Assembly: GCA_000092065.1 (NCBI GenBank)
Contig: CP000599.1
DNA from: Ostreococcus lucimarinus
Taxonomy: Eukaryota
Length of the DNA: 64,000 nt
Strand: one strand, 5' to 3'
Shown here: positions 2,811-59,366 of the stretch, piece by piece
How the letters are laid out: every line of letters begins with the position of its first letter
Position numbering within the stretch: the first letter of the stretch is position 1
Made by a program: the position numbers and the translations under genes
Notes under the pieces: generated by a model
Database searches by the model: none
The model's input: the letters and a program-made list of their open reading frames with translations, nothing else
What the model was told of the DNA's origin: nothing

Positions 2811-3173
2811 GTGCGTGCGCGATGCGCGATAGCGACGTCGTCGGTGCCGCGAACGAGGCGACGATCAGAGACGATTCGACGACGCATTCGAATGCGCGCG
2901 AAGCGACGCGGCGCGAAGCGACGCGGCGCGCGGTCGCGCGCGACGATCGGCGACGGCGAGTGATGGTTGGAAAAGTTTTACATCGTTTGTGGCGCGCGCG
3001 GGGGGCGTCGCGTCGTCGCGGGCGCGGAGAGGACGGACGCGGTCGAGGGGGACGACGCGACCCGCAATTCGACGAGCTGGGGCGGGTCGGTTGATTGAGG
3101 GTTGAAGTGGGATTACACTGTTTACGCATACGCGCTCGGGTGACTGACGAAGACGCGAATCGCGCGCGCGCAG
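2811..3173 (+). other. Putative spliceosomal intron immediately after the AMT start codon
   Basis: ATGG|GTGCGTGCGC donor at 2811, GTGACTGACGA branch at 3141-3150, GCGCGCAG acceptor ending at 3173. The phase is compatible (G+CT=Ala) and gives MAVGDDVDINFMLTNTF... Confidence 0.4.
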
Positions 3174-4471
3174 CTGTTGGTGATGACGTCGATATCAACT
3201 TTATGCTGACGAACACCTTCTTGGTGTTCTTCATGCAAGCCGGCTTCGCGATGTTGTGCGCCGGATCCGTGCGAAGCAAGAACACGAAGAACATTTTGAT
3301 TAAAAACGTGCTCGACGCGTGCGTCGGCGCCATCGCGTGGTTCTTGTTTGGCTACGGTTTCGCGTTCGGGGCGACGACCGGAAAGAAGGAAAACGCGTTC
3401 ATCGGTTCCGGTAACTTCGCGATGAAGGACGTCACCACTGCGAGCGAATTGGCGATGTACTTGTTCCAGTGGTCGTTCTCCGCTGCGGCGACGACGATCG
3501 TGTCTGGCTCTGTCGCCGAACGCACCAAGTTCGAGGCGTACCTCGGCTACTCTTTCTTCCTCACCGCCTTCGTGTACCCGGTCGTCGTGCACTGGACCTG
3601 GAGTGGTGGCGCGGGCTGGTTGGGCACTGGCTACACTTTGGGCGACAAGGTCGCTGACGTTGGCATGCACGACTTCGCCGGCTCTGGCGTCGTCCACATG
3701 GTTGGTGGTTTCGCTGGTTTGATGGGCGCCATGATCGTCGGTCCGCGCACCGGTCGCTTTGCTTCCGATGGTCGCGTGAACCCGATGCCGGGCCACTCCG
3801 CCCCGCTCGTCGTTCTCGGCACCTTCGTCCTCTGGCTCGGCTGGTACGGCTTCAACCCGGGCTCCGCGGGCGGCGTCGTCGACAACGCTGAAACTGTGGC
3901 CCGCTGTGCCATCACCACGACGCTCTCCGCCGCCGCTGGTGGTGTGACAGCCATGCTCTTGAACTACAAGTTGTACCACGTCTGGGACTTGATCGCCGTG
4001 TGCAACGGTGTTCTCGCGGGTCTCGTCTCCATCACCGCCGGTTGCGCCGTCACGGAACCGTGGGCCGCCCTCGTCTGCGGTTCGCTCGGCGCCCTCGTCA
4101 TTCACTTCTCCTCCAAGCTCTTGCTCAAGTTCCAAATCGACGATCCGCTCGAAGCGGCGCCGATGCACGGCTTCTGCGGCGCCTTCGGCGTTCTCTGGGT
4201 CGGTTTCATGGCCAAGAAGGAATACGCCGAGGCTCAGGGTGCCAGAGCTGGTGCGTTTTACGAAGGTGGCGGCAAGCAACTCGGCGCGCAAATCGTCGGT
4301 ATCCTCGTCATCATCGCGTGGACGTGCGGCACCATTGGTCCCTTCTTCATGTTGATGAAGAAGTTCAACTTGCTCCGCACCACCGTCGAAGAAGAGACGC
4401 TCGGCTTGGACGAATCCAAGCACGGCGGCAAGGCGTACGCGCTGGAACTCGTCGCTCCGGAACCAGCGTAA
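3174..4471 (+). CDS. AMT1: Ammonium transporter (Amt/MEP/Rh family, AMT1-like), main coding exon
   Basis: Hallmark motifs FLVFFMQAGFAMLCAGSVRSKNTKNILIKNVLD, DFAGSGVVHMVGG and GFNPGS, with multiple TM helices. The ORF-track start at 3095 is a TTG. The first in-frame ATG is at 3203. A probable 4-nt first exon ATGG (2807-2810) is spliced to 3174 (see findings). Confidence 0.92.
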
Positions 4472-4627
4472 ACGTGCGCTCCACGGGTTGAACGAACGTA
4501 TCGTCGGTCAGAAATTTTCTGAGCACGTACATCCCGCTCGTTTCTGCGAAGAAGGCGCTCGTACGCACGCGTTCGCGCGTCTCTTTTTCACTCTTAACCA
4601 TCACAAAACAGATTCACCTTCCTCTTT

Positions 4628-6726: not shown

Positions 6727-9700
6727 CTACCGCGCGCGTAATTCGTTAATTTTAAGCGTGAGATAGGCGGTGACGTCGTCGGAGGCCGGTGGCATGGACT
6801 CGGCGATGTAGACCAAGGTGGCGATCTCGCGCGCGGTGGCGCCGGCGCCGTCTAAGACGGCGTCGAAGACGCGCTCGGCGGCGGCCAAGGATACGGCGCC
6901 GGATTTCTTCACCGAGGCGTCCGCGATCGAGAGAGCCTTGTCGTCGTATTTCGCGCCGTCGATGACGCGGTATTGCTTTGAGGCGGATTTTGTGAGACCT
7001 GATTCGATCTCTTCGCGTCTGGCGTCGATTCGCGGTTGTAAATACGTCGCCGCGGCGTCGCTGAGGACGTAGGCGTATCGACCGCCGCCGCCGGCGAGCA
7101 CCAGCGCCAAAGTCTCGAGCTCGATCTTCGTGATTCCGGCGCCGTCGAAGACGCTTTCGTAAATTTTTTCCGCGCCGGCGCGATCGATTTCGCCTCTTTC
7201 CGCCATGAAAGTGTCCGCGAGGCACAGAGCGGCGTTGTCGTACCTGACGCCGCCGACGGTGCGATAGAATCCTTGAGGCGCTTTACGCTTTTGCGCGCGC
7301 TGTTGCTGCGTCAAAGCGTTCTTTTCCGTCAAACGTGCGTCGCGCAGTCGGGAACGGAGCTCCGCAGCGAGACCCGTGGCGTCGAGACCGCGCGCTGCGC
7401 ACTCGGCGATGAGTTCGTCGCGCTTCATTTTGCTCAACGCGGTGAGCGAGGACGGTTCGAAGACGATCGCCGGGCGTTCCTCACTCGCGGCGTCAACACC
7501 CGGCGAGGAGGTTTCAGTGCTGACGATTACGGGCGTCGGCGTCGATGGTGCCGGCACCTGCGCTCCGCTCGCGCGTTCAGCCGCGGTTTCGGCTTTCGCC
7601 GCGCGTTTGGCCAGAGCCTCCGTCTTGGCTTCGGCTTCCTTGATCGCAAGCGTCGCCGATGAAAGCTTGGCTTCGAGCTCTTCCAACTGCGTCGCGAATC
7701 GAGACTCGGCTTCCGCTAAATCGCTCGCCGCACGCTCAGCGATCGTCTGCGCCTCGACCGCAAATTCTTCTTGGGCTCGCTCGCGCGCAACATCGGCGTC
7801 GTCCTCGGCAGCGGCGAGCCGCGCCTCCATGCGTGCCAAATCTGCTCGCAATTCTCGCTCGACGTCGTCATTCAACGCGCTACTCGATGCCTCAACCTTT
7901 GCTCGCGCTTCCGTTAAGTTGCGCGTCAACTCGTCGCGCTCGGCGGCGATTGCCGCGAGCGCCGCCGCAGCCGCTTCCTGTTCGCTTCTGAGCTCGCGCG
8001 CCAGTTCGCTCGCGCGATCGTCTGCTTCGGCTAGCTTTCGCTCCAACTCATCGCTCATCGAACGCAGGCGCGTCGCCTCGGAAGCTTCAGCCCTGGTGCG
8101 CTCGATTTCATCTCTCAACTCCTCCTGCTCGAGTTCAGCGATTCGAAGTTTCTCTCGCCATGCGTTTTCTGCGCGTCGCGCGTCGTCGCGCGCGGCTTCG
8201 AGTTCAGAAGCCTCGACGAGACTCGCCGTCTTCGCTTTGAGGGCTTCAAAGCGCGCGTTGGCTTCGCTCGCACGGCGCTCGGCGTCGGTGAGTTGACCTT
8301 TTAAGCTCTCGAATGCCTCCGCCGCAGACGCGGCGGAGAGTTCGCGCGCTGATCCTTCTTCGACGAGGCGCTCTATGTCGCTCACAAGGCCGTCAGATTT
8401 GCTCGTTTCCTCGACCAATCGCGCGTCGACTCGGGACTTTTCTGCACGTAAGCGCTTGATTTCGACTTCTAGTGCGGTGAAGCGCTCCTCCACTTGCGCG
8501 ACGGCTGTTCTCGCCGCCGCTACGTTTTGTTCGCTCTGCGACATGGCGTCGTCGATGGATTTCTTGGACTCGGCGTACGCACGATCGACCTCGGACTTTT
8601 CGGCAACTAATTCATCGTACTTTGCTCGAATTTCGGCAATTCGCGCTTCAGATGAATCCACCGCCGTCGCAAGCTTTGCTTCGCTCACGCGTAAAGCCTC
8701 CGCAATGCGCTCGCGTTCTTTTTCAGACGCAACGGCGTTTTCTGCCGCCTTTGCTTCCAATTCGGCGAGAGCATTACGCACGTCATTTCGCTCTTCAACC
8801 AGGCGGTCGATCTCACCTTGTCGACGCAATGCTTCGTTTGCCGCGGCGGCGTTGATAGCGTCCTTTTCAGCGCTAGAAGCCGATTTCAAACTCGAGATTT
8901 CACTCGCATACGTGCGTGCACTCTCGGAAGCGGCTTTCTCCGCCTTGTTGAGCTCGTCGGTTTTAGCTTGCAATTGCCCGCGCAAAGTTTCGCACTCGGC
9001 TCGCGATGCATCCAGCGCCGTAGAATCTACCGCATTTGCGAGTTCACGCTCAAACGCACTCTTTTCCTCAGTCAATCTCGCGACGGTTTCTTGTAACTTT
9101 GCCATATCGCTTAACCGCGCGTTTTGCTCGCCGTCGAGTCGCGACTGTGCCGCCGCCTTTTCTTCTTGAACTCGCGCGAGCGCTTGACGCAATTCGAGCG
9201 CTTGCGATTCCGCGCGAGCTTCGGCACTCTTGAGCGTCTCCAGCGCAGATTCCTTCTCTGCGCGAAGTCGCTCAATCTCGCTCTTCATTTGCTCCTTCTC
9301 CGCTCGGCTCGACTCGTTGAGCGAACGCTCCATCTGAGCAACGGAGTCTCGCATCTCTTGCAGTTGTGCTTGCGCTTGTTTAGTTTCCGCGGAAGCGGCG
9401 TCAAGGGCTCGCGACATTTTGAGCGTCGCGTACGATTGCTCGTTCGCGCTTCTCGTTTCGAGTTTCGCCTCCACCTTGGCGAGTGCCGCGCGCGCGGTCG
9501 CGGCGTCTTCCATCGCTACTTCGGCTTCGCGCTTGGCGTCGTAGAGCTCTCGCGCAGTTTTGTCTTCATCGAGCAAAGTCGCAAATTGCTTCTCCAATCT
9601 TGCTGAATTTTCAATAGCCTTCTTCGCGTCAGCTTCGAGATTCTTGATCCGCCGCTCTTCGTTGGCGTATTGATGCTCGAGTTCGCGACGACGTTGATCC

Positions 9701-12276
9701 GCGGCGAGGGTCACTTTCCTCAATTCGAACGCGGCGTCCCGCTCCACGATTTCGGCGGCGCGTTCAGCCTCGCGAAGCATGCGCGTCAAGTCGGAAACTT
9801 GCGTCTTCAATTCGGCGTTTTCCGTCATCAACGCCTTGACACGCCCTTCGAGTGCGCCGGCACGCATATCATCGCGCTCAAGCGCCTTGTTGGCCGTGCG
9901 AAGTTCGCTGACTGCGCGCTCGAGTTCGCTGACCTTCGCTTTGAGTTGCTTTACGCGCGCGATGGCTTCGTCCTTGGCGATTTCTTCCGAGCGAACGCGG
10001 TCTTTGAGTTTTGCCACCTCATCGACAGTCATCCCAGATACACCTTCGAGCTCGGAGACGCGCGCATCCGTCTTGCGTTCGACTTGAGTGCGTTGGTACG
10101 TGTACTCCAACTGCACTTTTTCCAGACGCGAAGTCACCTCGCGGCACTCTTCGCTCAATTCATCGTTCCTCGCGTTGGACGCCTTCAGTTCGTCTTCCAA
10201 ATTACGCACGCGTTCGCCCAAGTTGCGCGCTTTTTCGTCGCTCTGCGAAGCAGACGTCATGGATTTTGCGACAAGCACTTGCAACTCTTCTTCCATTTCC
10301 TTTACCTTGAGCTGCTCCGCTTCGAGTTTTTGCGTGAGAGAGAACTCAACTGCCATTTGCTTCCCGAGCTCTGCTTTGGCGGTTTCCAAGCTCTGAAGCG
10401 CTTCGTCGACATCTGTTTCACTGGTGGTGCGCTTGCTCATGAAAACGTTGATATTTTCGATCCAAGCGGCGACGGGCATGCCGACTGAGGTTTCAATAGA
10501 CGGAATTTCCGGCGATGACTCCGGCTGCGTTGGCTCTTCCTTCGTCTCCGTCGCTTGAGCTTCGATCTTGGCTTGTTCGCGCTCGCGTTCTTCCTGCGCC
10601 GCCTTGGCCTTAGCCTCGCGTTCCTCCTGCGCCGCCTTGGCCTTAGCCGCGCGTTCCTCCTGCGCCGCCTTGGCCTTAGCCGCGCGTTCCTCCTGCGCCG
10701 CCTTGGCCTTAGCCGCGCGTTCCTCCTGCGCCGCCTTGGCCTTAGCCGCGCGTTCCTCCTGCGCCGCCTTAGCCTTGGCCTTGGCCTCGCGTTGTTGGCG
10801 CTCGCGTTCTTCCTGCGCCGCCTTGGCTTTGGCTTCGCGCTCTCTTTGAGACGCTTGGGCTTTCAAATCGCGCTCGCGCTGTTCGCGTTCACGTTTCTCT
10901 ACGAGTGCCTTTGCTTTGGCTTCGCGCTCGCGCTGCTGACGCTCGCGCGTCTCCTCTTGCTCGCGTTTGCGCTTCAAGCGGTCGAGCTCCGCCGCCTTGG
11001 CTTTCGCCTCGCGCGCTTGCACGGCGCGAATCTCCTCCTGCTCGCGCAAGAAGACGGCATTCTTCATCGCTGCCTTTTCAGTGTCTCGGGCTTTATAATA
11101 GACGTCGATCGCCGCGAGCACAGACGCCGGAATCTTGTTGCGAGGCGTCTGTTCTTCCATATCGGCGATAGTCTTGCAAACGGCGGCGTCAAGCTCGTCG
11201 CTCGAAGCCGCGAGCTTAGCCGCGAGCTCTGGCGCGCCCGAGATTTGCGAAAAAGCCTCCGCGAAGTCCAAACGAAGCGCTTGTCGACCTTCGGTCGTGG
11301 TGAGCAAACGCCTGTACACGGTGCCGTAATACGCCGTGACGACGAAACCGACGAGCTGTTCGAGCGCCGCGAGCGGCGGGTTGGATTCTAAACTCGACAA
11401 AACGGCGTCAATGGAAACCGTGGACAACACCGCCGTGACCGCGATCCCGGTCACGGCGCTGTACGCCACGCCCTGACGCAACGCGCGCTCGCGCGTGCGC
11501 TCGTACTCTTCCCAACTCGAATTCGCCTCGGCGTCGAATTCGCCATCCTTGTACTTTTTCAAATCCTCCAACAAGCTCGTCGTCTCTTTCGCCGTCTTCG
11601 CCGTCAGCGCCTTCACCGTCGCCTCCGCCTCGCTCTCATCTTTCGCCGCGAGCAAACTCGCGATCTTAGAGCTTATAAACGCCGCCTTCTTCGCCGCGTC
11701 CGCGAGCTCCGCCGGAATCGCTTCGTCTTCGTTCGCCCGCGCCTCCCGCGTCGATCGATCCAGCACTCGCCTTCCCGCGTCTCGCGCCCTCGACACCACC
11801 GCCGACGACGTCTCCGACTCTTCCTCTTCGTTTCCCGTCTCTCCCGTCGCTTTCACGATCGCGATTCGCTTCGATTCGCGTCGTCGTCGCGCCTTCGCCG
11901 CGCCTCGCGCGCCTCGTCGCGCCCCGCCGTCGATCCTTCCCGCCACCGTCGCCGCGATCGCCATCGCGACGCCCCCGGACGACGCGAGCGGTCGCGTCGC
12001 GTCGACGCGCGCGCGCGCGGTCGCGCTCGGTGCGCGCGCGCGACGAGCGCCGCGCGCGGGATCGGCAGACGGCGCTGCGATTTCAAACTTCGCGCGTCGA
12101 TTTCGTCGCGAAACCGCGTCCGCGGCGCGCGAGATTCGCGCGAGGCGCTCGCGTTCGCGCGCGCTCGCGTTCGGCGCGCGCTCGCGTCGCGCGTCGCGCG
12201 CGCGTGTGCGGTCGGCGAGGCGCGCGTTCGACGACGGTCGACCGCGCGGGTGGGTAAACAGTGCGGTACATTTCAT
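6727..12276 (-). CDS. Giant coiled-coil protein with N-terminal hydrophobic segments, a SAP domain and a duplicated C-terminal domain
   Basis: 1849-aa ORF with more than 1000 aa of heptad-rich Glu/Ala/Lys/Arg sequence. SAP-like LTALSKMKRDELIAECAARGLDATGLAAELRSRL. Two C-terminal repeats (YRTVGGVRYDNAAL... and YRVIDGAKYDDKAL...). The start may really be Met at 11964, because the CBS gene stop lies only 39 nt upstream of 12276. Confidence 0.75.
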   Translation of the reverse strand: MKCTALFTHPRGRPSSNARLADRTRARDARRERAPNASARERERLARISRAADAVSRRNRRAKFEIAAPSADPARGARRARAPSATARARVDATRPLASSGGVAMAIAATVAGRIDGGARRGARGAAKARRRRESKRIAIVKATGETGNEEEESETSSAVVSRARDAGRRVLDRSTREARANEDEAIPAELADAAKKAAFISSKIASLLAAKDESEAEATVKALTAKTAKETTSLLEDLKKYKDGEFDAEANSSWEEYERTRERALRQGVAYSAVTGIAVTAVLSTVSIDAVLSSLESNPPLAALEQLVGFVVTAYYGTVYRRLLTTTEGRQALRLDFAEAFSQISGAPELAAKLAASSDELDAAVCKTIADMEEQTPRNKIPASVLAAIDVYYKARDTEKAAMKNAVFLREQEEIRAVQAREAKAKAAELDRLKRKREQEETRERQQREREAKAKALVEKREREQRERDLKAQASQREREAKAKAAQEERERQQREAKAKAKAAQEERAAKAKAAQEERAAKAKAAQEERAAKAKAAQEERAAKAKAAQEEREAKAKAAQEEREREQAKIEAQATETKEEPTQPESSPEIPSIETSVGMPVAAWIENINVFMSKRTTSETDVDEALQSLETAKAELGKQMAVEFSLTQKLEAEQLKVKEMEEELQVLVAKSMTSASQSDEKARNLGERVRNLEDELKASNARNDELSEECREVTSRLEKVQLEYTYQRTQVERKTDARVSELEGVSGMTVDEVAKLKDRVRSEEIAKDEAIARVKQLKAKVSELERAVSELRTANKALERDDMRAGALEGRVKALMTENAELKTQVSDLTRMLREAERAAEIVERDAAFELRKVTLAADQRRRELEHQYANEERRIKNLEADAKKAIENSARLEKQFATLLDEDKTARELYDAKREAEVAMEDAATARAALAKVEAKLETRSANEQSYATLKMSRALDAASAETKQAQAQLQEMRDSVAQMERSLNESSRAEKEQMKSEIERLRAEKESALETLKSAEARAESQALELRQALARVQEEKAAAQSRLDGEQNARLSDMAKLQETVARLTEEKSAFERELANAVDSTALDASRAECETLRGQLQAKTDELNKAEKAASESARTYASEISSLKSASSAEKDAINAAAANEALRRQGEIDRLVEERNDVRNALAELEAKAAENAVASEKERERIAEALRVSEAKLATAVDSSEARIAEIRAKYDELVAEKSEVDRAYAESKKSIDDAMSQSEQNVAAARTAVAQVEERFTALEVEIKRLRAEKSRVDARLVEETSKSDGLVSDIERLVEEGSARELSAASAAEAFESLKGQLTDAERRASEANARFEALKAKTASLVEASELEAARDDARRAENAWREKLRIAELEQEELRDEIERTRAEASEATRLRSMSDELERKLAEADDRASELARELRSEQEAAAAALAAIAAERDELTRNLTEARAKVEASSSALNDDVERELRADLARMEARLAAAEDDADVARERAQEEFAVEAQTIAERAASDLAEAESRFATQLEELEAKLSSATLAIKEAEAKTEALAKRAAKAETAAERASGAQVPAPSTPTPVIVSTETSSPGVDAASEERPAIVFEPSSLTALSKMKRDELIAECAARGLDATGLAAELRSRLRDARLTEKNALTQQQRAQKRKAPQGFYRTVGGVRYDNAALCLADTFMAERGEIDRAGAEKIYESVFDGAGITKIELETLALVLAGGGGRYAYVLSDAAATYLQPRIDARREEIESGLTKSASKQYRVIDGAKYDDKALSIADASVKKSGAVSLAAAERVFDAVLDGAGATAREIATLVYIAESMPPASDDVTAYLTLKINELRAR
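10585..10840 (-). repeat. 33-bp in-frame tandem repeat (about 7 copies, 4 of them identical) encoding AKAKAAQEERA units
   Basis: The unit gcgttcctcctgcgccgccttggccttagccgc is repeated back-to-back at 10618, 10651, 10684 and 10717, with degenerate copies on both sides. Confidence 0.9.
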
Positions 12277-15459: not shown

Positions 15460-16602
15460 CTAACTCGACGCGTCGTCCGAACGTTTCTCTCGCGCGCCGA
15501 TGAACGCCGACATTTCCACCGCCGCCGTTCGAGTCGGCGACGCGTACGCGTCGTCGTCGTCGTCGTCGTCGTCGTCCATCGTCGCGCGCGTGAGCACGAC
15601 GAACCCATCGCCCGCGGCTCGAGCCCCGCCCTCGTCGTCGCCCTCGTCGTCGTCGCTCGCGAAATCGACGTCGTCCGCGAGATCTCCCAACCCCGTCTGC
15701 GCGTCCTCCGCGCCGACCCCCCGCGCTCGCGCCGAGAGCCGCGCGCACCCGAACGCCGTCGCCAACTCCACCGCCATCTCCCCTCGCGCCGGGTGCGCCA
15801 ACACGAACACGATCGCGTGCACCGCCCCCTGCGACGTCTTACACGCGACGTGCGCGCACGCGAGCCACAGCGCCGGCTTCGCTCGCCCCGCCAGCGTCGA
15901 CGCCCGCAGCGCCGTCCCCGGCACGTTCGTCACCACCTGCGCGATCGGGTACCACGCCAACCGTCGCACGTACGTCCGCAATCGCGCGTGCGCTCGCCGC
16001 GCCGTCGCGTCGTCGCGCCCCAACGTCGCCTCGAGCGCCGCCGCGCTCGCCATCCCGCGACGAATCGCGCGCCAGCAGCGCGCGTTGTAACAAAACGCCG
16101 CCCAAATCGGGACGTAATAAAAAACCAACCGGATTGTCGCCGCGCGCCTCCCCTCCGATTTCACGTGACACCGCCCCAGCCTCGAATCGCCGTACGCGTT
16201 CGCGAGCATCGGCGCGAGCGCCGACGCCGCGCACGCCGTCCACGCGAATCCGTCCTCGCGTCGCGCGTCGCCCCTCGCGCGTCCCGCGCGCAGGCTCTCC
16301 ATCAGCGCCCGCGACACGAGCGCCGCCCACACCGCGCCGGCGACGCCGAACGTCTGTATCAACGCGCCCTGCAAAGCGCAGATCGCGCCGCCGCGCGCGC
16401 CGCGATCGCCGAGCGCGCACGCCGTCGAAAACATCAAATCGCTCAGCGCCAATCGTTTCACGTACGCGTACGTCCTGCCGCGCGTACTGCGCGTCGCGAT
16501 CGCGCCCGCGAGGAGCACGAACGACGCGCCGGCGATCGACGCCGCTGAAGCGACGCGGTTCGTCGCGCGCACGATCGCGCGTTCGTCGGGCGTCCACGAC
16601 AT
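15460..16602 (-). CDS. 7TM receptor-like protein (cAMP-receptor/GCR1-type GPCR family, tentative)
   Basis: Starts MSWTPDE at 16602 and has seven hydrophobic segments. Family-like landmarks are CALQGALIQTFGVAGAVWAA, RLVFYYVPIWAAF, LAWYPIAQVV and SQGAVHAIVFVL. The tail is acidic and poly-Asp. The upstream part of ORF 15460..17727 is non-coding. Confidence 0.6.
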   Translation of the reverse strand: MSWTPDERAIVRATNRVASAASIAGASFVLLAGAIATRSTRGRTYAYVKRLALSDLMFSTACALGDRGARGGAICALQGALIQTFGVAGAVWAALVSRALMESLRAGRARGDARREDGFAWTACAASALAPMLANAYGDSRLGRCHVKSEGRRAATIRLVFYYVPIWAAFCYNARCWRAIRRGMASAAALEATLGRDDATARRAHARLRTYVRRLAWYPIAQVVTNVPGTALRASTLAGRAKPALWLACAHVACKTSQGAVHAIVFVLAHPARGEMAVELATAFGCARLSARARGVGAEDAQTGLGDLADDVDFASDDDEGDDEGGARAAGDGFVVLTRATMDDDDDDDDDAYASPTRTAAVEMSAFIGAREKRSDDASS

Positions 16603-16827
16603 TGTGGATTGAAAATTCGCGATCCGATGATTCGCGTCGCGATCGCGCGGCGTTCGGTTCGACGCGCGTCTCGATCGTCTCGGAACGTGTTCGCGATCGT
16701 TTACGACGCGTCGACGCGTCGACGCGCGGCGCGCGCGCGGCGCGATCGCGCGATTCGACGCGGGGGCGATCGATCGACGGCGGTGATTCGCGGACGCGAA
16801 CGCGAACCGTCGCGATCGGACACTCGG

Positions 16828-30430: not shown

Positions 30431-30672
30431 TCGAGCGCCGTCCATCGTAAAAAATGTATTAGCGCGCTTGTAACGCCGGCGCACGCTAGCTCGAACCGCG
30501 CGCTTCGATCGCGCGTCCCGTCCCGCGTCCCGAGCGCGTCCCGAGCGCGTCCCCGTCCCGCACACCTCGACGTCTCGCGACGCCGCCGCGACGCGTCGCG
30601 CCGCGACGACGCCGACGTCGACGACGCGCGCGCCGAGCGTCGCGAGACGCGCGAACCGCGCGATCGCGCGCG

Positions 30673-54415: not shown

Positions 54416-54793
54416 TCACCGCGACGCGTCGCCGTCGCCGTCCGTCTTCGCCGCGCGTTCCGCCGCGCGTCCTCGCGCGCGAGCGAGCCACGCCGAATCC
54501 TTCCTCTCGTCCCCCCGCGCGCCCCTCGCGTCGCGCGCGCGCGCCGTCGGCGCCGTCGCCGTCGCCGTCGTCGCGCCCGCGCCCGCGCTCGCCGCCAATC
54601 TCTCCCCGCTTCCGCGCGTCGTCGTCGACGCGTCGATGAAAACGCCTCGCCCCGCCGTCGCCGCGTCAATCTCCCCCCCCCGCGAGCGCTGCGCCGCCCG
54701 CGCCCCCTCGAACCGCACCCGCATCGCCGCCAGCGCCTCCCGCGTCGCCGCGTCCGCGATCATCGTCGTCCCGCCGTCGTCGTCGTCGTCGTC

Positions 54794-54829
<36 letters not shown>

Positions 54830-55381
54830 GCGTTCAAACCTCGCCACGTCCGCCGCGCTCGCGACCGCGCGACACGTCGGACACGTCGGACGCGTCACCG
54901 CGCTCCCCCCCTCCCCCCCCCCTTTCGCCCACTTCAAAAAGCACGCGCCGTGAAACGCGTGCCAACACGCGTCCAACCGCGCGCGCGTCTCGCGCGTCGC
55001 CGCCTCGCGACAAATCGCGCACCGCCTCGCCGCGCGTCCCATCGCCCGCGCGCGCGCTCGAGCCGCGCCCAGCACCGCCACGAGATATCCCTCCGTCCGT
55101 TCGAACGCCTCGGCGTCGCGCGCGATCGCCGCCGCGAGCGCGCTCGCCGCGTCGTCGTCGTCCGCGCCTCTGGTGTGTGTAATCATAATCGTCGTCTCAC
55201 TGTTTGGCCATAGGTGTGGATTCGCAATCGTCACGACGACGTCGCACGACGCGTCGGCGTCGTCCCGGTCGTCGGCGCTCGTCGCGCGGTGCGCGACGAC
55301 GACGCGGTCGGTCGTTCGCGACACCGACGGCGCGACGCCGAGGTAGACGCGCGCGGCGTCGAGCTCGGCGTCGAGCGCCAT
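54416..55381 (-). CDS. RING-H2 zinc-finger protein (probable E3 ubiquitin ligase)
   Basis: C3H2C3 pattern CAIC-x14-CWHAFHGAC-x24-CPTC. The first ATG (MALDAELD) is at 55381, because the ORF-track start 55435 is GTG. Confidence 0.7.
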
Positions 55382-55435
55382 GGTGTGCGGCGTCGGCGGC
55401 GCGCGCGGGTGACATAGAGTGTTAGGGGTGCGCAC

Positions 55436-55478
55436 TACGACGTTTGGTATCGTATATTGATCGATATTCGTCCTTCGA
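55436..55478. promoter_or_regulatory. Small AT island (GGTATCGTATATTGATCGATATTCG) between divergent RING and DUF285 genes
   Basis: It has the same CGTATATT signature as the islands at 42752 and 46816. Confidence 0.3.
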
Positions 55479-55580
55479 CGCGCGTTCGCGCGCGCGTATC
55501 TGCGCTCGACTCGGCGTCGCGCAACACCTTCCCCCCGCGCGCGCGCGCGCGCGACGGCGCGACGCGACCGACGACGCGCG

Positions 55581-55612
<32 letters not shown>

Positions 55613-55656
55613 CGACGGGGCGCGACGGTCGCGGGACGCGCGCGATCGAGCGCGCG

Positions 55657-56940
55657 ATGGCGACGCGCGAAGGCGGCGCGAAGAAGAATCGCGGCGCGAG
55701 AATCGCGAAACCCTCGATCGACGCGACGATCGTCGGTGGCGCGTGCGTCGTCGCGCTCGCGGGACGCGCGCGCGCGGTGCTCGCGGGAGACGTCCCGTCG
55801 GGGGGCGGCTCGGCCGTGGACGGGTACTTCAACTCCGAGAGCACGCTGAAGAGCGCGGTGGACGCGTGCTGGAGCTCGTCGACGACGGTGAACGCGGCGT
55901 GCGCGGACGGCGCGGTCGGCATCGCGGATTGGAACGTCGGCGACGTGACGAGCATGCGTGACATGTTCTCCGAAAAGGAGGGCTTTAACGCCGACTTGAG
56001 TCGTTGGAACACGAAGTCGGTGACGACCATGAGTGCCATGTTCAACGGCGCGACGAGCTTCAACGGCGACATGCCGAACTGGAACGTCGAGAAGGTGACG
56101 CACATGACTCACATGTTCCGAGACGCGACGAGCTTCAACGGCGACATGCCGAACTGGAACGTCGAGGCGGTGACGAACATGGCTCAAGTGTTCTCCGGCG
56201 CGACGAGCTTCAACGGCGACATCTCGAACTGGAACCCGAAGGCGGTGACGGGCATGTATCGCACGTTCTACGGCGCGACGAGCTTCAACGGCGACATCTC
56301 GAACTGGAACGTCGAGGCGGTGAAGGACATGAGTCAAGTGTTCAACGGCGCGACGAGCTTCAACGGCGACATCTCGAACTGGAACGTCGAGGCGGTGACG
56401 AGCATGCGTGACATGTTCTACGGCGCGACGAACTTCAACGGCGACATCTCAAACTGGAACCCGAAGGCGGTGAAGGACATGAATCAAATGTTCCGAGACG
56501 CGACGAGCTTCAACGGCGACATCTCCGCGTGGAACATCCAAGCCGTTACGGACATGTCTAACATGTTCAACAACGCGCGGGCTTTCGCGCGAGACATCAC
56601 GGGCTGGAACGCGGCGGCGATCGCCGCCGCGCGCGACGCCACCAAAGTTTCCGGCATGTTCAAGAACGCCACGGCGTGGCGCGCGATCTACACCAACACG
56701 CAGACGTCTTACTTTTCGGCGAACGACGGCCCGCCGCATTTGTGGACCGCCGGCGCCGCCGCTCCCGGCGCCGGCGCCGCCGCTCCCGGCGCCTCCGTCG
56801 CAGACTTCCCCGAGTGGGGCGTCGCCCTCGTCGCCCTCTCGCTCGCGCTCTCCACGATCACGTCCATCGTCGTCATCGCGCGCGCGCTGTGCGCGCCCAA
56901 GATTCTCGTTCCCGCCGCGCGGTGGTCCGCGCGCGTCTGA
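55657..56940 (+). CDS. BspA-type / DUF285 leucine-rich-repeat surface protein with C-terminal TM anchor
   Basis: About nine 25-aa repeats F.GATSFNGDISNWNV.AVT.M..M. The C-terminus has an Ala/Pro linker followed by the TM segment WGVALVALSLALSTITSIVVIA. Start MATREGG at 55657. Confidence 0.8.
   Translation: MATREGGAKKNRGARIAKPSIDATIVGGACVVALAGRARAVLAGDVPSGGGSAVDGYFNSESTLKSAVDACWSSSTTVNAACADGAVGIADWNVGDVTSMRDMFSEKEGFNADLSRWNTKSVTTMSAMFNGATSFNGDMPNWNVEKVTHMTHMFRDATSFNGDMPNWNVEAVTNMAQVFSGATSFNGDISNWNPKAVTGMYRTFYGATSFNGDISNWNVEAVKDMSQVFNGATSFNGDISNWNVEAVTSMRDMFYGATNFNGDISNWNPKAVKDMNQMFRDATSFNGDISAWNIQAVTDMSNMFNNARAFARDITGWNAAAIAAARDATKVSGMFKNATAWRAIYTNTQTSYFSANDGPPHLWTAGAAAPGAGAAAPGASVADFPEWGVALVALSLALSTITSIVVIARALCAPKILVPAARWSARV
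55921..56680 (+). repeat. 75-bp coding tandem repeats (DUF285 modules)
   Basis: The DNA-level periodicity is visible: ...acgagcttcaacggcgacatctcgaactggaacgtcgaggcggtga... recurs every 75 bp. Confidence 0.85.
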
Positions 56941-57131
56941 GCGCGCCGTCGGCGCGACTTCGACGTCGACGCAACTTTTTATCCACGCAATCAACATCCA
57001 TGCACCGCATTAAACCGTCTTCGAACGCCGCGCGCTCGACGAACCGCGATCGCGGCGCCGACCCTCGACGCGGCGTTCGATACCGACGCCGCGTTCACGG
57101 AGCGCGCCAACGCGCACCTCTGGAACCTATG

Positions 57132-57369
57132 AATGACGCGAATCGCGCATCAGATACCGCATTCACGCGCTCTAACGCGTACATCTCAACCCTGATCCGC
57201 GCGATAAATGACGCGAATCGCGCATCAGATACCGCATTCACGCGCTCTAACGCGTACATCTCAACCCTGATCCGCGCGATAAATGACGCGAATCGCGCAT
57301 CAGATACCGCATTCACGCGCTCTAACGCGTACATCTCAACCCTGATCCGCGCGATAAATGACGCGAATC
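57132..57369. repeat. Perfect 75-bp tandem repeat, 3 full copies plus 13 nt (intergenic minisatellite)
   Basis: The unit aatgacgcgaatcgcgcatcagataccgcattcacgcgctctaacgcgtacatctcaaccctgatccgcgcgata occurs at 57132, 57207 and 57282 with no mismatch. A fourth copy is truncated at 57369. Confidence 0.97.
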
Positions 57370-57498
57370 CCTCGCGCCGCGCGCGGCCGCGGCGTCGGCG
57401 CGACGTCGCACTCGCGCGCGCGCTCGACGCCCGACCGCCGCTCTCGCGCGCGCGCGCCGAATCCGCGCCCTCGCCGAATCCGCGCGCGCTCGCGAGCG

Positions 57499-59328
57499 AT
57501 GGCGACGCCGCGCGCGGCGGCGGCGGCGGTGGCGGCGCGACCGTCGACGCCGCGCCGACGCGCGCGCGCGCGCGCGGGCGACGGGCGACACCTCGACGCG
57601 ACGGCGGACGCGGTGCGCGCGGCGGGCGTCGCGGCGCGGCGCGCGGCGCCGCGAACGGGACGCGCGGAGGACGGGGAGGAGGACGCGCGGGGGCGACGCG
57701 CGGTGTACGTGGAGACGTACGGGTGCCAGATGAACGTGAACGACTCGGAGGTGATGATGGCGGTGCTCGAGGGCGCGGGGTACGACGAGACGAAGGAGGT
57801 GAACGACGCGGACGTGATTCTGATCAACACGTGCGCGATTCGGGATAAGGCGGAGGCGAAAATTTGGCAGCGGTTGGCGTACTTTCGATCGCTGGGGAAC
57901 GGGAAGAAACGGAGCGAAAAGCCGGTGGTGGGCGTGCTGGGATGCATGGCGGAGAGGATCAAGGAGAAGTTGTTGGAGGCGGATAGGCTGGCGGACATCG
58001 TGGCGGGACCGGACGCGTATAGGGATTTGCCGAATCTCATCGACGCCGTCGTCGGGAATCCGGGAGGGAAGGCGATGAACGTGCAGTTGAGCGTGGAGGA
58101 GACGTACGCGGACATCATTCCCGTGCGCGAGGCGGGGTCGCACTCGGCTTTTGTCACCATCATGCGCGGGTGCGACAACGCGTGCGCGTTTTGCATCGTG
58201 CCGTACACGCGCGGACGCGAGCGCTCGCGCGATTTGGCGAGCATCATGTACGAGATTCGTCTTTTGAGCGAACAAGGGGTGAAAGAGGTCACTTTGCTCG
58301 GGCAAAACGTGAACTCGTACGCGGGAGAGCCCGCGAGCGCGACGACGACGGATTTCTTGAGCTCACTGCGAGGCGAATCCAAAGACCCGATCGCCGAGCT
58401 CGCGAACGCGTCGACGGAACGTTTGGCGAGCGCGAGCGGTAGCGCGTTCGTCGGCTACGCCGATGGCTTCGCGAGTCGGTACGATCCCGAGCGCAAGCGA
58501 GCGGGGACGATTCAATTCGCCGAGTTGCTCGATAAAGTCGCGAGCGTGGATCCCGAGATGCGCATTCGTTTCACGTCGCCGCACCCGAAGGATTTCCCCG
58601 ACGACGTCTTGCGAGTGATTCGCGATCGACCCAACGTGTCGAAGTGCTTGCACATGCCCGCGCAGAGCGGGTCGTCGGCTACCTTGGAGCGCATGGCGCG
58701 TGGGTACACGCGCGAGTCTTACTTTGCCCTCATCGATCGCGTCAAGGCGATGATTCCGGGGTGCGCCATCACCACGGATATCATCAGCGGCTTTTGCGGC
58801 GAGACCGAGGACGATCACGAGGACACCGTGAGTTTGATGAGCGCGATCGGATACGAACAAGCGTTCATGTTCGCTTACAGCGAACGCGAGGGCACGGCGG
58901 GGCAAAGACACCAAATCGACGACGTCCCCGAAGACGTGAAGCAGCGGCGTCTGCAGGAAGTCATCGACGCCTTTCGAGCGCGCGCGGCGGAGAAGCAACA
59001 GATGGAGATCGGTTCCACGCATTGCGTGTTGGTGGAGGGTCCGAGTAAGAAAAACTCCGACGAGTGGACGGGGAAGACGGACACATCGAAGTGGGTGGTG
59101 TTCGAAAAGAATGATGCCATCGGCAAGTACGCCGGCGACGAAGACGCGCCGACGAGCGGGTCGTACGGCGTCAAGCCTGGAGATTACGTCGCCGTTCGCG
59201 TCACTGGGTGCAGTACGGGGACGTTATTTGGTCAAGTTCTCGGTAAGACGAGTTTGGTAGAGTTTCAAAACTTGCACGGCGCGCAGTGGACGACGCCAAA
59301 GTCGAGCAACGGCGCGAGCGCGCGTTGA
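57499..59328 (+). CDS. CDK5RAP1: Radical-SAM tRNA methylthiotransferase (MiaB / CDK5RAP1-like)
   Basis: UPF0004 domain VYVETYGCQMNVNDSE...ILINTCAIRDKAE, radical-SAM cluster GCDNACAFCIVPYTRGRERSR, and a C-terminal TRAM-like domain. Start MATPRAA at 57499. Confidence 0.9.
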   Translation: MATPRAAAAAVAARPSTPRRRARARAGDGRHLDATADAVRAAGVAARRAAPRTGRAEDGEEDARGRRAVYVETYGCQMNVNDSEVMMAVLEGAGYDETKEVNDADVILINTCAIRDKAEAKIWQRLAYFRSLGNGKKRSEKPVVGVLGCMAERIKEKLLEADRLADIVAGPDAYRDLPNLIDAVVGNPGGKAMNVQLSVEETYADIIPVREAGSHSAFVTIMRGCDNACAFCIVPYTRGRERSRDLASIMYEIRLLSEQGVKEVTLLGQNVNSYAGEPASATTTDFLSSLRGESKDPIAELANASTERLASASGSAFVGYADGFASRYDPERKRAGTIQFAELLDKVASVDPEMRIRFTSPHPKDFPDDVLRVIRDRPNVSKCLHMPAQSGSSATLERMARGYTRESYFALIDRVKAMIPGCAITTDIISGFCGETEDDHEDTVSLMSAIGYEQAFMFAYSEREGTAGQRHQIDDVPEDVKQRRLQEVIDAFRARAAEKQQMEIGSTHCVLVEGPSKKNSDEWTGKTDTSKWVVFEKNDAIGKYAGDEDAPTSGSYGVKPGDYVAVRVTGCSTGTLFGQVLGKTSLVEFQNLHGAQWTTPKSSNGASAR

Positions 59329-59337
59329 CGCGAGCGA

Positions 59338-59342
59338 TGTAA
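59338..59342 (+). terminator. TGTAA candidate poly(A) signal for the MiaB-like gene
   Basis: cgatgtaaaatt, 10 nt after the stop. Confidence 0.35.
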
Positions 59343-59366
59343 AATTACACACAATCTAATCATTAT

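Follow-up and report, generated by a model that had tools for sequence, protein, structure and literature searches.

The placement of perfect tandem repeats in front of a gene raises two questions, namely how the repeats arose and whether they serve the gene beside them. Such an array of 75-bp units lies upstream of a MiaB/CDK5RAP1-like gene in Ostreococcus lucimarinus. The window analysed here is the whole stretch of 64,000 nucleotides from contig CP000599.1 (assembly GCA_000092065.1). It has a G+C content of 64%, and its genes are eukaryotic, with a RING-finger gene, a DEAD-box helicase gene, and a MiaB gene of organelle type whose product has a presequence. The array can be regarded, with a probability of about 0.8, as a genuine population-polymorphic minisatellite (VNTR). 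Elements of this kind are ordinary; the instability of the locus is notable.

A perfect 75-bp array in front of MiaB

Tandem Repeats Finder delimits the array at 57132-57369 (no strand assigned), with a period of 75, 3.2 copies, 100% matches, 0 indels, and a score of 476. Exact 75-mer matches with 0 mismatches start at 57133, 57208, and 57283, giving full identical units at 57133-57207, 57208-57282, and 57283-57357 followed by a partial unit of 12-13 nt. No further match occurs in the 64-kb window at up to 3 mismatches, and the chance expectation for the 75-mer in the window, taken from shuffles, is 0. Both searches agree with the sequence-only reading, which had described three base-identical copies and a fourth truncated to 13 nt; the latter ends after AATGACGCGAATC. 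The position it had given, about 130 bp before the start codon in an intergenic gap of 558 bp, is also confirmed by measurement. The gap runs for 558 nt from the stop of the upstream ORF at 56940 to the MiaB ATG at 57499, and 129 nt separate the array from this ATG. Judged from the sequence, the array would thus be placed in the promoter region of MiaB. This gene, at 57499..59328 (+), encodes a radical-SAM methylthiotransferase of 609 aa with UPF0004, Radical_SAM, and TRAM domains. The GC content of the array is 0.54, compared with 0.65 in its left flank and 0.84 in its right flank. Every unit contains one CGCGAATCGCG, the near-palindromic motif noticed earlier, together with one ACGCGT, as had been stated. 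Within the 64 kb, 57132-57369 is the sole long-period non-coding array, and the other high-scoring arrays lie within ORFs. A coding minisatellite of six copies of a 33-nt repeat (97% identical) is present at 10584-10780 within the ORF 6727-12276 (-).

Directly left of the array, 57079..57132 (no strand assigned) probably holds an old diverged copy of the unit, of the form GATACCG...CGTTCACGG..CCAACGCGCACCTCTGGAACCTATGA. This assignment is tentative, with a local alignment score of 26 against the unit that is reached by 12 of 650 genomic windows. In one allele (L066), a hybrid unit contains variant sequence of this diverged copy. The units also bring short signals of their own. An upstream ATG opens a 20-codon ORF (MTRIAHQIPHSRALTRTSQP followed by a stop) in the MiaB frame at 57133..57195 (+), with equivalents at 57208 and 57283. 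For such an ORF to count as a uORF, the array DNA would have to be transcribed into the MiaB mRNA. The ATG of the partial unit at 57358..57360 (+) is likewise in frame and open to MiaB, giving the 656-aa gene call of some metagenome annotations. Moreover, a TATA-like GATAAAT stands at each unit junction, at 57203..57209 (+) and again at 57278 and 57353. The whole window holds 4 copies of GATAAAT, 3 of them at these junctions, and a core-promoter role for them is conjectural.

Both strands were said to remain open through the array, and this was matched by the ORFs 56676..57848 (+) and 57095..57334 (-), which correspond to frame +0 and one minus-strand frame. The array could accordingly be pictured as expressed, whether as a translated repetitive exon, as functional uORFs, or as a tandem small-RNA gene. 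Two open frames speak for such a reading, as do the ORFs predicted on the array by metagenome gene callers and a unit length of 75 nt, which is tRNA- or snoRNA-sized. Nevertheless, it is exceedingly improbable. The Pfam search returns no family above threshold for the two open-frame peptides, and its matches to the translated unit do not include DUF285, the family of the upstream gene. GC by codon position is 0.75/0.69/0.65 in the ORF spanning the array, a non-coding pattern, against about 0.62/0.51/0.81 in real genes here. Furthermore, common variants found in other alleles are non-synonymous or stop-creating in the uORF, and the common C-to-T variant places a stop at codon 7 of the 20-codon ORF. 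Owing to these three lines of evidence, the idea that the array is part of a translated exon, raised earlier as a possible refutation, is not borne out. Identity of the unit with a tRNA, a snoRNA, or another RNA family was ruled out by ARAGORN and Rfam. ARAGORN finds no tRNA in the array, and the Rfam search of the array peaks at 14-20 bits (E above 1), well short of the gathering scores. The C/D-box-like strings of the unit are broken by common variants. Elsewhere in the window, ARAGORN predicts a tRNA-Phe(GAA) at 16575-16672 (98 nt) and a tRNA-Pro(CGG) at 30489-30570 (82 nt). Both probably contain introns, since both are longer than a standard tRNA. Also rejected was an origin of the unit in the coding repeat (75 nt) of the DUF285 gene next to it. 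The periods are equal, but the local alignment score is 20 against a background of 18 ± 2.8.

Copy number and unit types in wild populations

Searches for the exact protein and a single DNA-pattern scan yielded about 40 contigs of the same species from independent metagenome assemblies, with flanks that match the window at 97-99.9% identity. The check for copy-number polymorphism proposed by the sequence-only reading gave a clear answer. On independent contigs, wild arrays span 1.2 to 6.2 copies of the 75-bp unit, as counted mostly in short-read metagenome assemblies, which are able to collapse identical repeats, and in about five cases on long contigs of presumed long-read origin. The long contigs come from the samples JGI 3300050343, 3300047157, and 3300046167 and ENA ERZ10646592, ERZ10646601, and ERZ10646630. 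The tally comprises gap-free arrays with both flanks, leaving out L036, L060, L062, and L063, which have N-gaps inside the array. There are 1.2 copies in L001, L064, L067, and L068, 2.2 copies in L006, L008, L061, L065, and L066, and about 2.2-2.4 copies in L032 and L059. The window shares its 3.2 copies with L005 and L021, whereas 4.2 copies are found in L025 and L029, 5.3 in L031, 6.2 in L030, and at least 5.7 in L003, a contig that begins inside the array. The contigs L029, L031, and L030, with 4.2, 5.3, and 6.2 copies, respectively, are 154-158 kb long. Even among 10 contigs encoding a MiaB protein 100% identical to that of the window, arrays of 1.2, 2.2, 3.2, and at least 5.7 copies occur, along with transition variants. 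A metagenome scan with a 22-nt core of the unit returned 8 loci, one of them a 4.2-copy allele of the C/G type seen in the window, and 10 further contigs carry 1.2-2.4 copies.

All contigs agree on the right edge of the array, which falls between ATGACGCGAATC and CCTCGCGCC, while the left edge is variable. Units differ at few positions, nearly all by transitions, and 12 unit types are distinguished. The two commonest variable sites are CAT[C/T]AG and CCT[G/A]AT. Arrays of uniform C/G units are found in the window (all three units), L025, and L030; others are uniformly T/G or uniformly T/A. Mixed arrays are represented by L021 (T,T,C) and L031 (T,C,C,C,C), and the units of L066 differ from one another by more than 10%. 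Since the remaining alleles have T/G units throughout, T/A units throughout, or a mixture, the base-for-base agreement of the three window copies belongs to this particular haplotype. The window array fits a recent expansion or homogenisation of one unit type. The earlier proposal of a very recent expansion or ongoing homogenisation is therefore in keeping with both the range of 1.2-6.2 copies and the contrast between the all-C/G window and the remaining alleles. The unit core is almost invariant over about 60 copies, which could reflect constraint rather than youth.

Perfect repeat identity can also be produced by mis-assembly or over-polishing. In that case a single copy would have been expanded, or a longer array collapsed, in the assembly of the window. 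This explanation deserves next to no credence. The array is carried by about 40 independent contigs from different samples and assemblers, and contigs of 46-158 kb carry 2 to 6 units in a row. Runs of identical C/G units, too, are found in L025, L030, and L031. The assembly artefact that the sequence-only reading had named as a possible refutation thus fails on these long contigs. At the other end of the range, a 1.2-copy array (87 nt) is shorter than the 141-nt assembly word (k=141) of its contig, so its junction should exist in the reads and would not result from collapse.

The array is a real, variable MINISATELLITE. It shows what defines a minisatellite, namely a head-to-tail unit within 10-100 bp, varying copy number, shuffled variant order, and a non-coding nature. 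Like eukaryotic intergenic minisatellites, it consists of head-to-tail units, here of 75 bp, with copy-number differences between individuals and interspersed variant units, and it has one stable and one variable edge with a probable older diverged copy at the edge. Unlike them, it is found in a very compact picoalgal genome, in which long non-coding arrays are scarce (one in 64 kb), its unit is a quasi-palindrome, and it abuts a gene that is gained and lost.

The DUF285 cassette and its second locus

The gene upstream of the array, at 55657..56940 (+), is a DUF285/PARCEL repeat gene of 427 aa with a C-terminal hydrophobic segment. It matches PF03382 (DUF285) with an E value of 2.2e-98, and its tandem 25-residue (25-aa) repeat corresponds to a 75-nt coding period at 56018-56568. 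Alleles of this gene are up to about 8% different (compared with L026, L024, and L001), whereas the flanking genes are 97-99.5% identical. The DUF285 protein of L066 is longer (543 aa), and the DUF285 gene of L029 is 5'-truncated. From its sequence, it looks like a hypervariable, membrane-anchored repeat-protein gene exchanging between two loci.

The RING-finger gene at 54416..55381 (-) lies on the other side of DUF285 and is, in related species, the direct divergent neighbour of MiaB. The order in four related lineages is sugar transporter, pyridine-nucleotide oxidoreductase, DUF2505, CFAP77, RING (-), MiaB (+), DEAD (-), ribosomal protein L19, and Skp1. There, RING and MiaB are directly adjacent, spaced by 255-330 nt, with no DUF285 gene between them. 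A metagenome protein matches the MiaB protein of the window at 100% identity. Identity falls to 83% with the representative of a cluster (built at 90% identity) that includes Ostreococcus tauri proteins, the closest named relatives, and to 72% with a Micromonas commoda protein. A reading of the window as Micromonas DNA with introner elements was accordingly set aside. Upstream of the MiaB conserved domain, no DNA similarity was found in the four lineages (MiaB 78-88% identical), which makes phylogenetic footprinting impossible. Downstream, MiaB (+) and the DEAD-box helicase (-) are convergent with 38 nt between their stops (59329-59366), so that their 3' ends must overlap or be extremely short.

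Presence and absence of DUF285 also segregate within the species. Among 27 alleles of the MiaB locus, 18 have DUF285 between RING and the array as in the window, one of these in a 5'-truncated form. The other 9, including contigs of 46, 157, and 158 kb, lack it, and their RING-side sequence runs straight into the array. The segment absent from them, about 1.6 kb at 55491..57132 (+), comprises the DUF285 gene, its 5' region, and its 3' spacer; its limits can be placed only approximately, given a micro-inversion of the window at the left junction. The DUF285-less alleles display at least 7 different deletion junctions, all leading into the array at different unit phases. Most of these junctions share a left end just after TCGAGCGCAGAT, a 12-mer that stands behind a palindrome with an 8-bp stem, TCGACGCG-CGTT-CGCGTCGA. 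This order of palindrome and 12-mer is what other alleles show in the left breakpoint region, 55475..55514 (no strand assigned). In the window, a micro-inversion of about 20 nt turns the TCGAGCGCAGAT of L026, L031, and L023 into ATCTGCGCTCGA at 55498-55509. A 23-nt deletion is found at the same spot in L022, L025, and L036 instead. The junction of L020 contains an inverted part-unit, and the DUF285-less allele L032 retains a cassette remnant, CGCGCCAACG.

Occurrence of the unit at other loci had been put forward as a point to be checked. No other copy is present in the window, but in some strains one unit stands with a DUF285 tail upstream of a COP1-like gene. This second locus is represented by L024 (JGI) and the independent 61-kb ENA contig L038, which are 99.4% identical over 3 kb across the DUF285-unit-COP1 junction. 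In each, a DUF285 gene is followed by the same 3' spacer, the diverged copy, and exactly one unit, ahead of the COP1-like RING/WD40 gene. Six other contigs of the same species have no cassette at the COP1 locus; one of them, 957 kb long, shares its sample of origin with a MiaB-locus contig. In L038, 71 nt have given way to about 2.08 kb, and the right breakpoint falls exactly at the unit end, between GATCCGCGCGA and GCGTGCG. The cassette thereby replaces 71 nt of the empty site and is not a clean insertion. At the left end of this cassette (L038, 2804-2870), two perfect palindromes are seen, CGCGTACCGGCGTGCTGA-G-TCAGCACGCCGGTACGCG and GTCAGCA-C-TGCTGAC.

The 5' parts of the cassettes at the MiaB and COP1 loci are unrelated, and similarity begins inside the coding repeats. 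The 3' part at the COP1 locus is 98% identical to the MiaB-locus allele L026 and about 92% identical to other alleles, which points to exchange between the two loci. At both, the unit is the last piece of the DUF285 3' flank, and throughout the metagenome collection its 22-nt core has only two genomic contexts. The cassette may have carried the unit to the MiaB locus or acquired it there; the boundary at the COP1 locus and the remnant CGCGCCAACG in L032 favour the former.

The DUF285 family is the PARCEL family, and PARCEL/DUF285 ORFs have been reported as non-syntenic between Ostreococcus species and described as mobilised within and between genomes, those of Ostreococcus included (PMC2996958). 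The neighbour of the array agrees with the PARCEL ORFs of that study in its strong DUF285 match and in its absence from the syntenic site in relatives, as well as in its presence or absence within a species and at two loci. In contrast, that study compared species and coding repeats, while the 3' flank ending in a 75-bp unit and the amplification of this unit lie outside it. DUF285/PARCEL mobility, inferred earlier from species comparison, is met here within one species with a shared 3' flank.

Several other origins of the unit were considered. The features of a transposon or MITE are lacking, as neither terminal inverted repeats nor a target-site duplication was found at the MiaB or COP1 locus, and two genomic contexts are not the many dispersed copies of such an element. 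Unit-like direct repeats flanking the cassette were sought in the left flanks and the empty COP1 site, and the alignments remained at background level. DUF285 genes have been reported in giant viruses of algae. A viral origin of the unit was nevertheless dismissed, as its 22-nt core is absent from viral contigs. Giant-virus contigs carry only distant DUF285 relatives, at most 48% identical; in L047-L058 (IMG/VR, including giant-virus MAGs), the DUF285 proteins are 25-48% identical to that of the window. Two distant DUF285 genes found via the C-terminal domain, L045 and L046, were rejected as unit carriers, with no unit downstream of either. Behind the DUF285 3' flank of L046 (a 923-nt contig), positions 846-904 are an 84% identical copy of the AT-richer RING-DUF285 block at 55402-55461 of the window. 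This suggests a different arrangement, or perhaps tandem cassettes, in that strain. The 3' flank of the distant DUF285-like gene of L045, from another lineage, has short tandem duplications of its own at 4373-4560, one with a period of about 57 nt (GCGCCGCGCCGGCGCGCGACTCTGAATAACAATCGCGCC) and one repeating TTTATTTACGCACG.

Palindromes, instability, and possible effects on MiaB

Each unit forms a quasi-palindrome, located in the first unit at 57142..57205 (no strand assigned), with an outer stem of ATCGCGCATCAG / CTGAT(CC)GCGCGAT and an inner stem of ACGCG / CGCGT. Folded as RNA, a single unit has a z-score of -2.2; for the whole array folded as DNA the value is -3.3. The two sites at which polymorphism is commonest pair with each other (C-G, U-G, U-A, and once C-A), and the CC bulge of the stem comes next in variability. 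By eye, this is suggestive of compensatory evolution of a hairpin, to which comparison with shuffles lends no significance. Pairing is kept in 98.5% of cells against 98.4% in shuffles, 6 of the 9 variable sites lie in stems, and the pairing count gives no significant covariation in the unit stem. The paired changes could result from mutational bias, since both share an ATCAG context on opposite strands. The palindrome is taken as a physical property relevant to instability, and not as evidence of a conserved functional hairpin.

This evidence bears on a different view of the unit, in which it is a functional end-module of the DUF285 cassette. It would then act as a hairpin (3'-end, terminator, or insulator) that blocks read-through into the following gene, or as a structured site of recombination by which the cassette enters and leaves. 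At both loci, the cassette is co-oriented with the downstream gene and ends in the unit, with the COP1-locus boundary exactly at the unit end. The unit is, moreover, an imperfect palindrome with a 2-nt bulge whose two commonest polymorphisms pair, and the deletion junctions are clustered. Such a role is nonetheless quite unlikely. The covariation is not significant, and mutational bias could explain the paired changes. Neither target-site duplications and terminal inverted repeats nor unit-like flank sequence are found, and the cassette 5' parts differ between the two loci. Additionally, the more distant DUF285 genes L045 and L046 have no downstream unit, and only two loci were found. Bacterial integron cassettes carry folded attC sites at their 3' end. 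By analogy with these structured sites for cassette insertion and loss, the 75-bp palindrome might mark the end of a mobile DUF285/PARCEL cassette as a site that forms hairpins and at which recombination or breakage takes place, with the array upstream of MiaB as the amplified scar of this process. The two loci ending in the unit, the clustered left breakpoint, the at least 7 junction types, and the junction palindromes are compatible with this proposal, which is very doubtful.

Palindromes and quasi-palindromes are known to drive instability through hairpin or cruciform breakage and template switching. The locus resembles such cases in the palindromes at the left breakpoint and in every unit, in its many independent deletion junctions, and in the micro-inversion of the window and the inverted part-unit of L020; it differs in that the mechanism is deduced here from sequence patterns only. 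Units would be gained and lost by replication slippage and unequal exchange, and the same process would homogenise the array, which would explain the three identical copies in the window. The palindromes of the units and of the left breakpoint probably make the region break-prone and supply microhomology for deletions. With many unit copies available as repair partners, deletions starting from the left palindrome would end somewhere in the array.

A direct effect of the array on MiaB was proposed in the sequence-only reading in the form of a multimerised enhancer built from ACGCGT. This hexamer is the MluI cell-cycle box, an enhancer element of fungi bound by MBF/SBF. The proposal is unsupported, for ACGCGT occurs 83 times in the window against 89.2 ± 9.8 expected, that is, at chance frequency, which leaves it uninformative. 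There are three sites in the array because the unit holding one is repeated. The likeness to the fungal box consists in the hexamer being present once per unit. Points of difference are the chance frequency of ACGCGT, a green alga as host, and a target, MiaB, outside the cell-cycle genes.

The motif CGCGAATCGCG behaves differently, with 16 copies in the window against 3.6 expected (about 4-fold enriched). Of its 13 copies outside the array, 8 fall in the roughly 18% of the window outside long ORFs. As a regulatory lead this enrichment is weak, because the intergenic DNA here is CGCG-rich and of low complexity. Copies of CGCGAATCGCG, often in the form of GACGCGAATCGCG, are found for example at 3154, 6364, 24304, 24317, 24367, 40635, 62847, and 62861, mostly between long ORFs, and several stand in divergent-promoter gaps. 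It could act in the promoters of this genome or could follow from the CGCG-rich make-up of the intergenic DNA.

More broadly, the array might be a multimerised cis-regulatory module for MiaB, with ACGCGT, CGCGAATCGCG, or GATAAAT as the active element of each unit and copy number tuning transcription. The 129-nt distance to the MiaB ATG, the enrichment and intergenic bias of CGCGAATCGCG, and the concentration of GATAAAT at the unit junctions are consistent with such a module. So is the fact that the deletions removing DUF285 always spare some of the array and the 129-nt leader. Tandem repeats in yeast promoters adjust both expression and the positioning of nucleosomes (Vinces et al. 2009, as cited in PMC3887541). 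These yeast repeats may be the nearest functional analogue of the array, sharing with it a variable length, a position directly upstream of a gene, and a GC content lower than that of the surroundings. They differ in being mostly short AT-rich units with measured expression effects, compared with a unit of 75 bp here. The weight of the evidence makes a cis-regulatory module unlikely. ACGCGT is at chance frequency and the MCB/MBF system is fungal, related species have no such sequence upstream of MiaB, and alleles with 1 to 6 copies coexist. A single unit, forming the tail of a DUF285 cassette, also precedes an unrelated gene, and the CGCG-rich low-complexity intergenic DNA weakens the motif enrichment.

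As a minisatellite, the array probably has no dedicated function, and its likely consequences would be side effects on MiaB. Changes in copy number would shift the distance between MiaB and its upstream neighbour in 75-bp steps. Each unit would bring a TATA-like GATAAAT and an upstream ATG, and the array would insert DNA of 0.54 GC beside a leader of 84% GC. A regulatory effect on MiaB, or a role in the 3'-end formation of DUF285, is possible.

The array is usable as a strain marker, with copy number and unit order readable from long-read metagenomes of an abundant coastal picoalga. It also marks a small hotspot in an ordinary syntenic chromosome region, in which gain, diversification, and deletion of a DUF285 surface-protein gene have recurred. 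The outlier chromosomes have been the main focus of published studies of structural variation in Ostreococcus. Furthermore, the wild alleles form a natural series of 1 to 6 copies, with and without the upstream gene. With this series, the influence of spacing, upstream ATGs, and inserts of lower GC on a promoter could be studied in an extremely compact, GC-rich genome.
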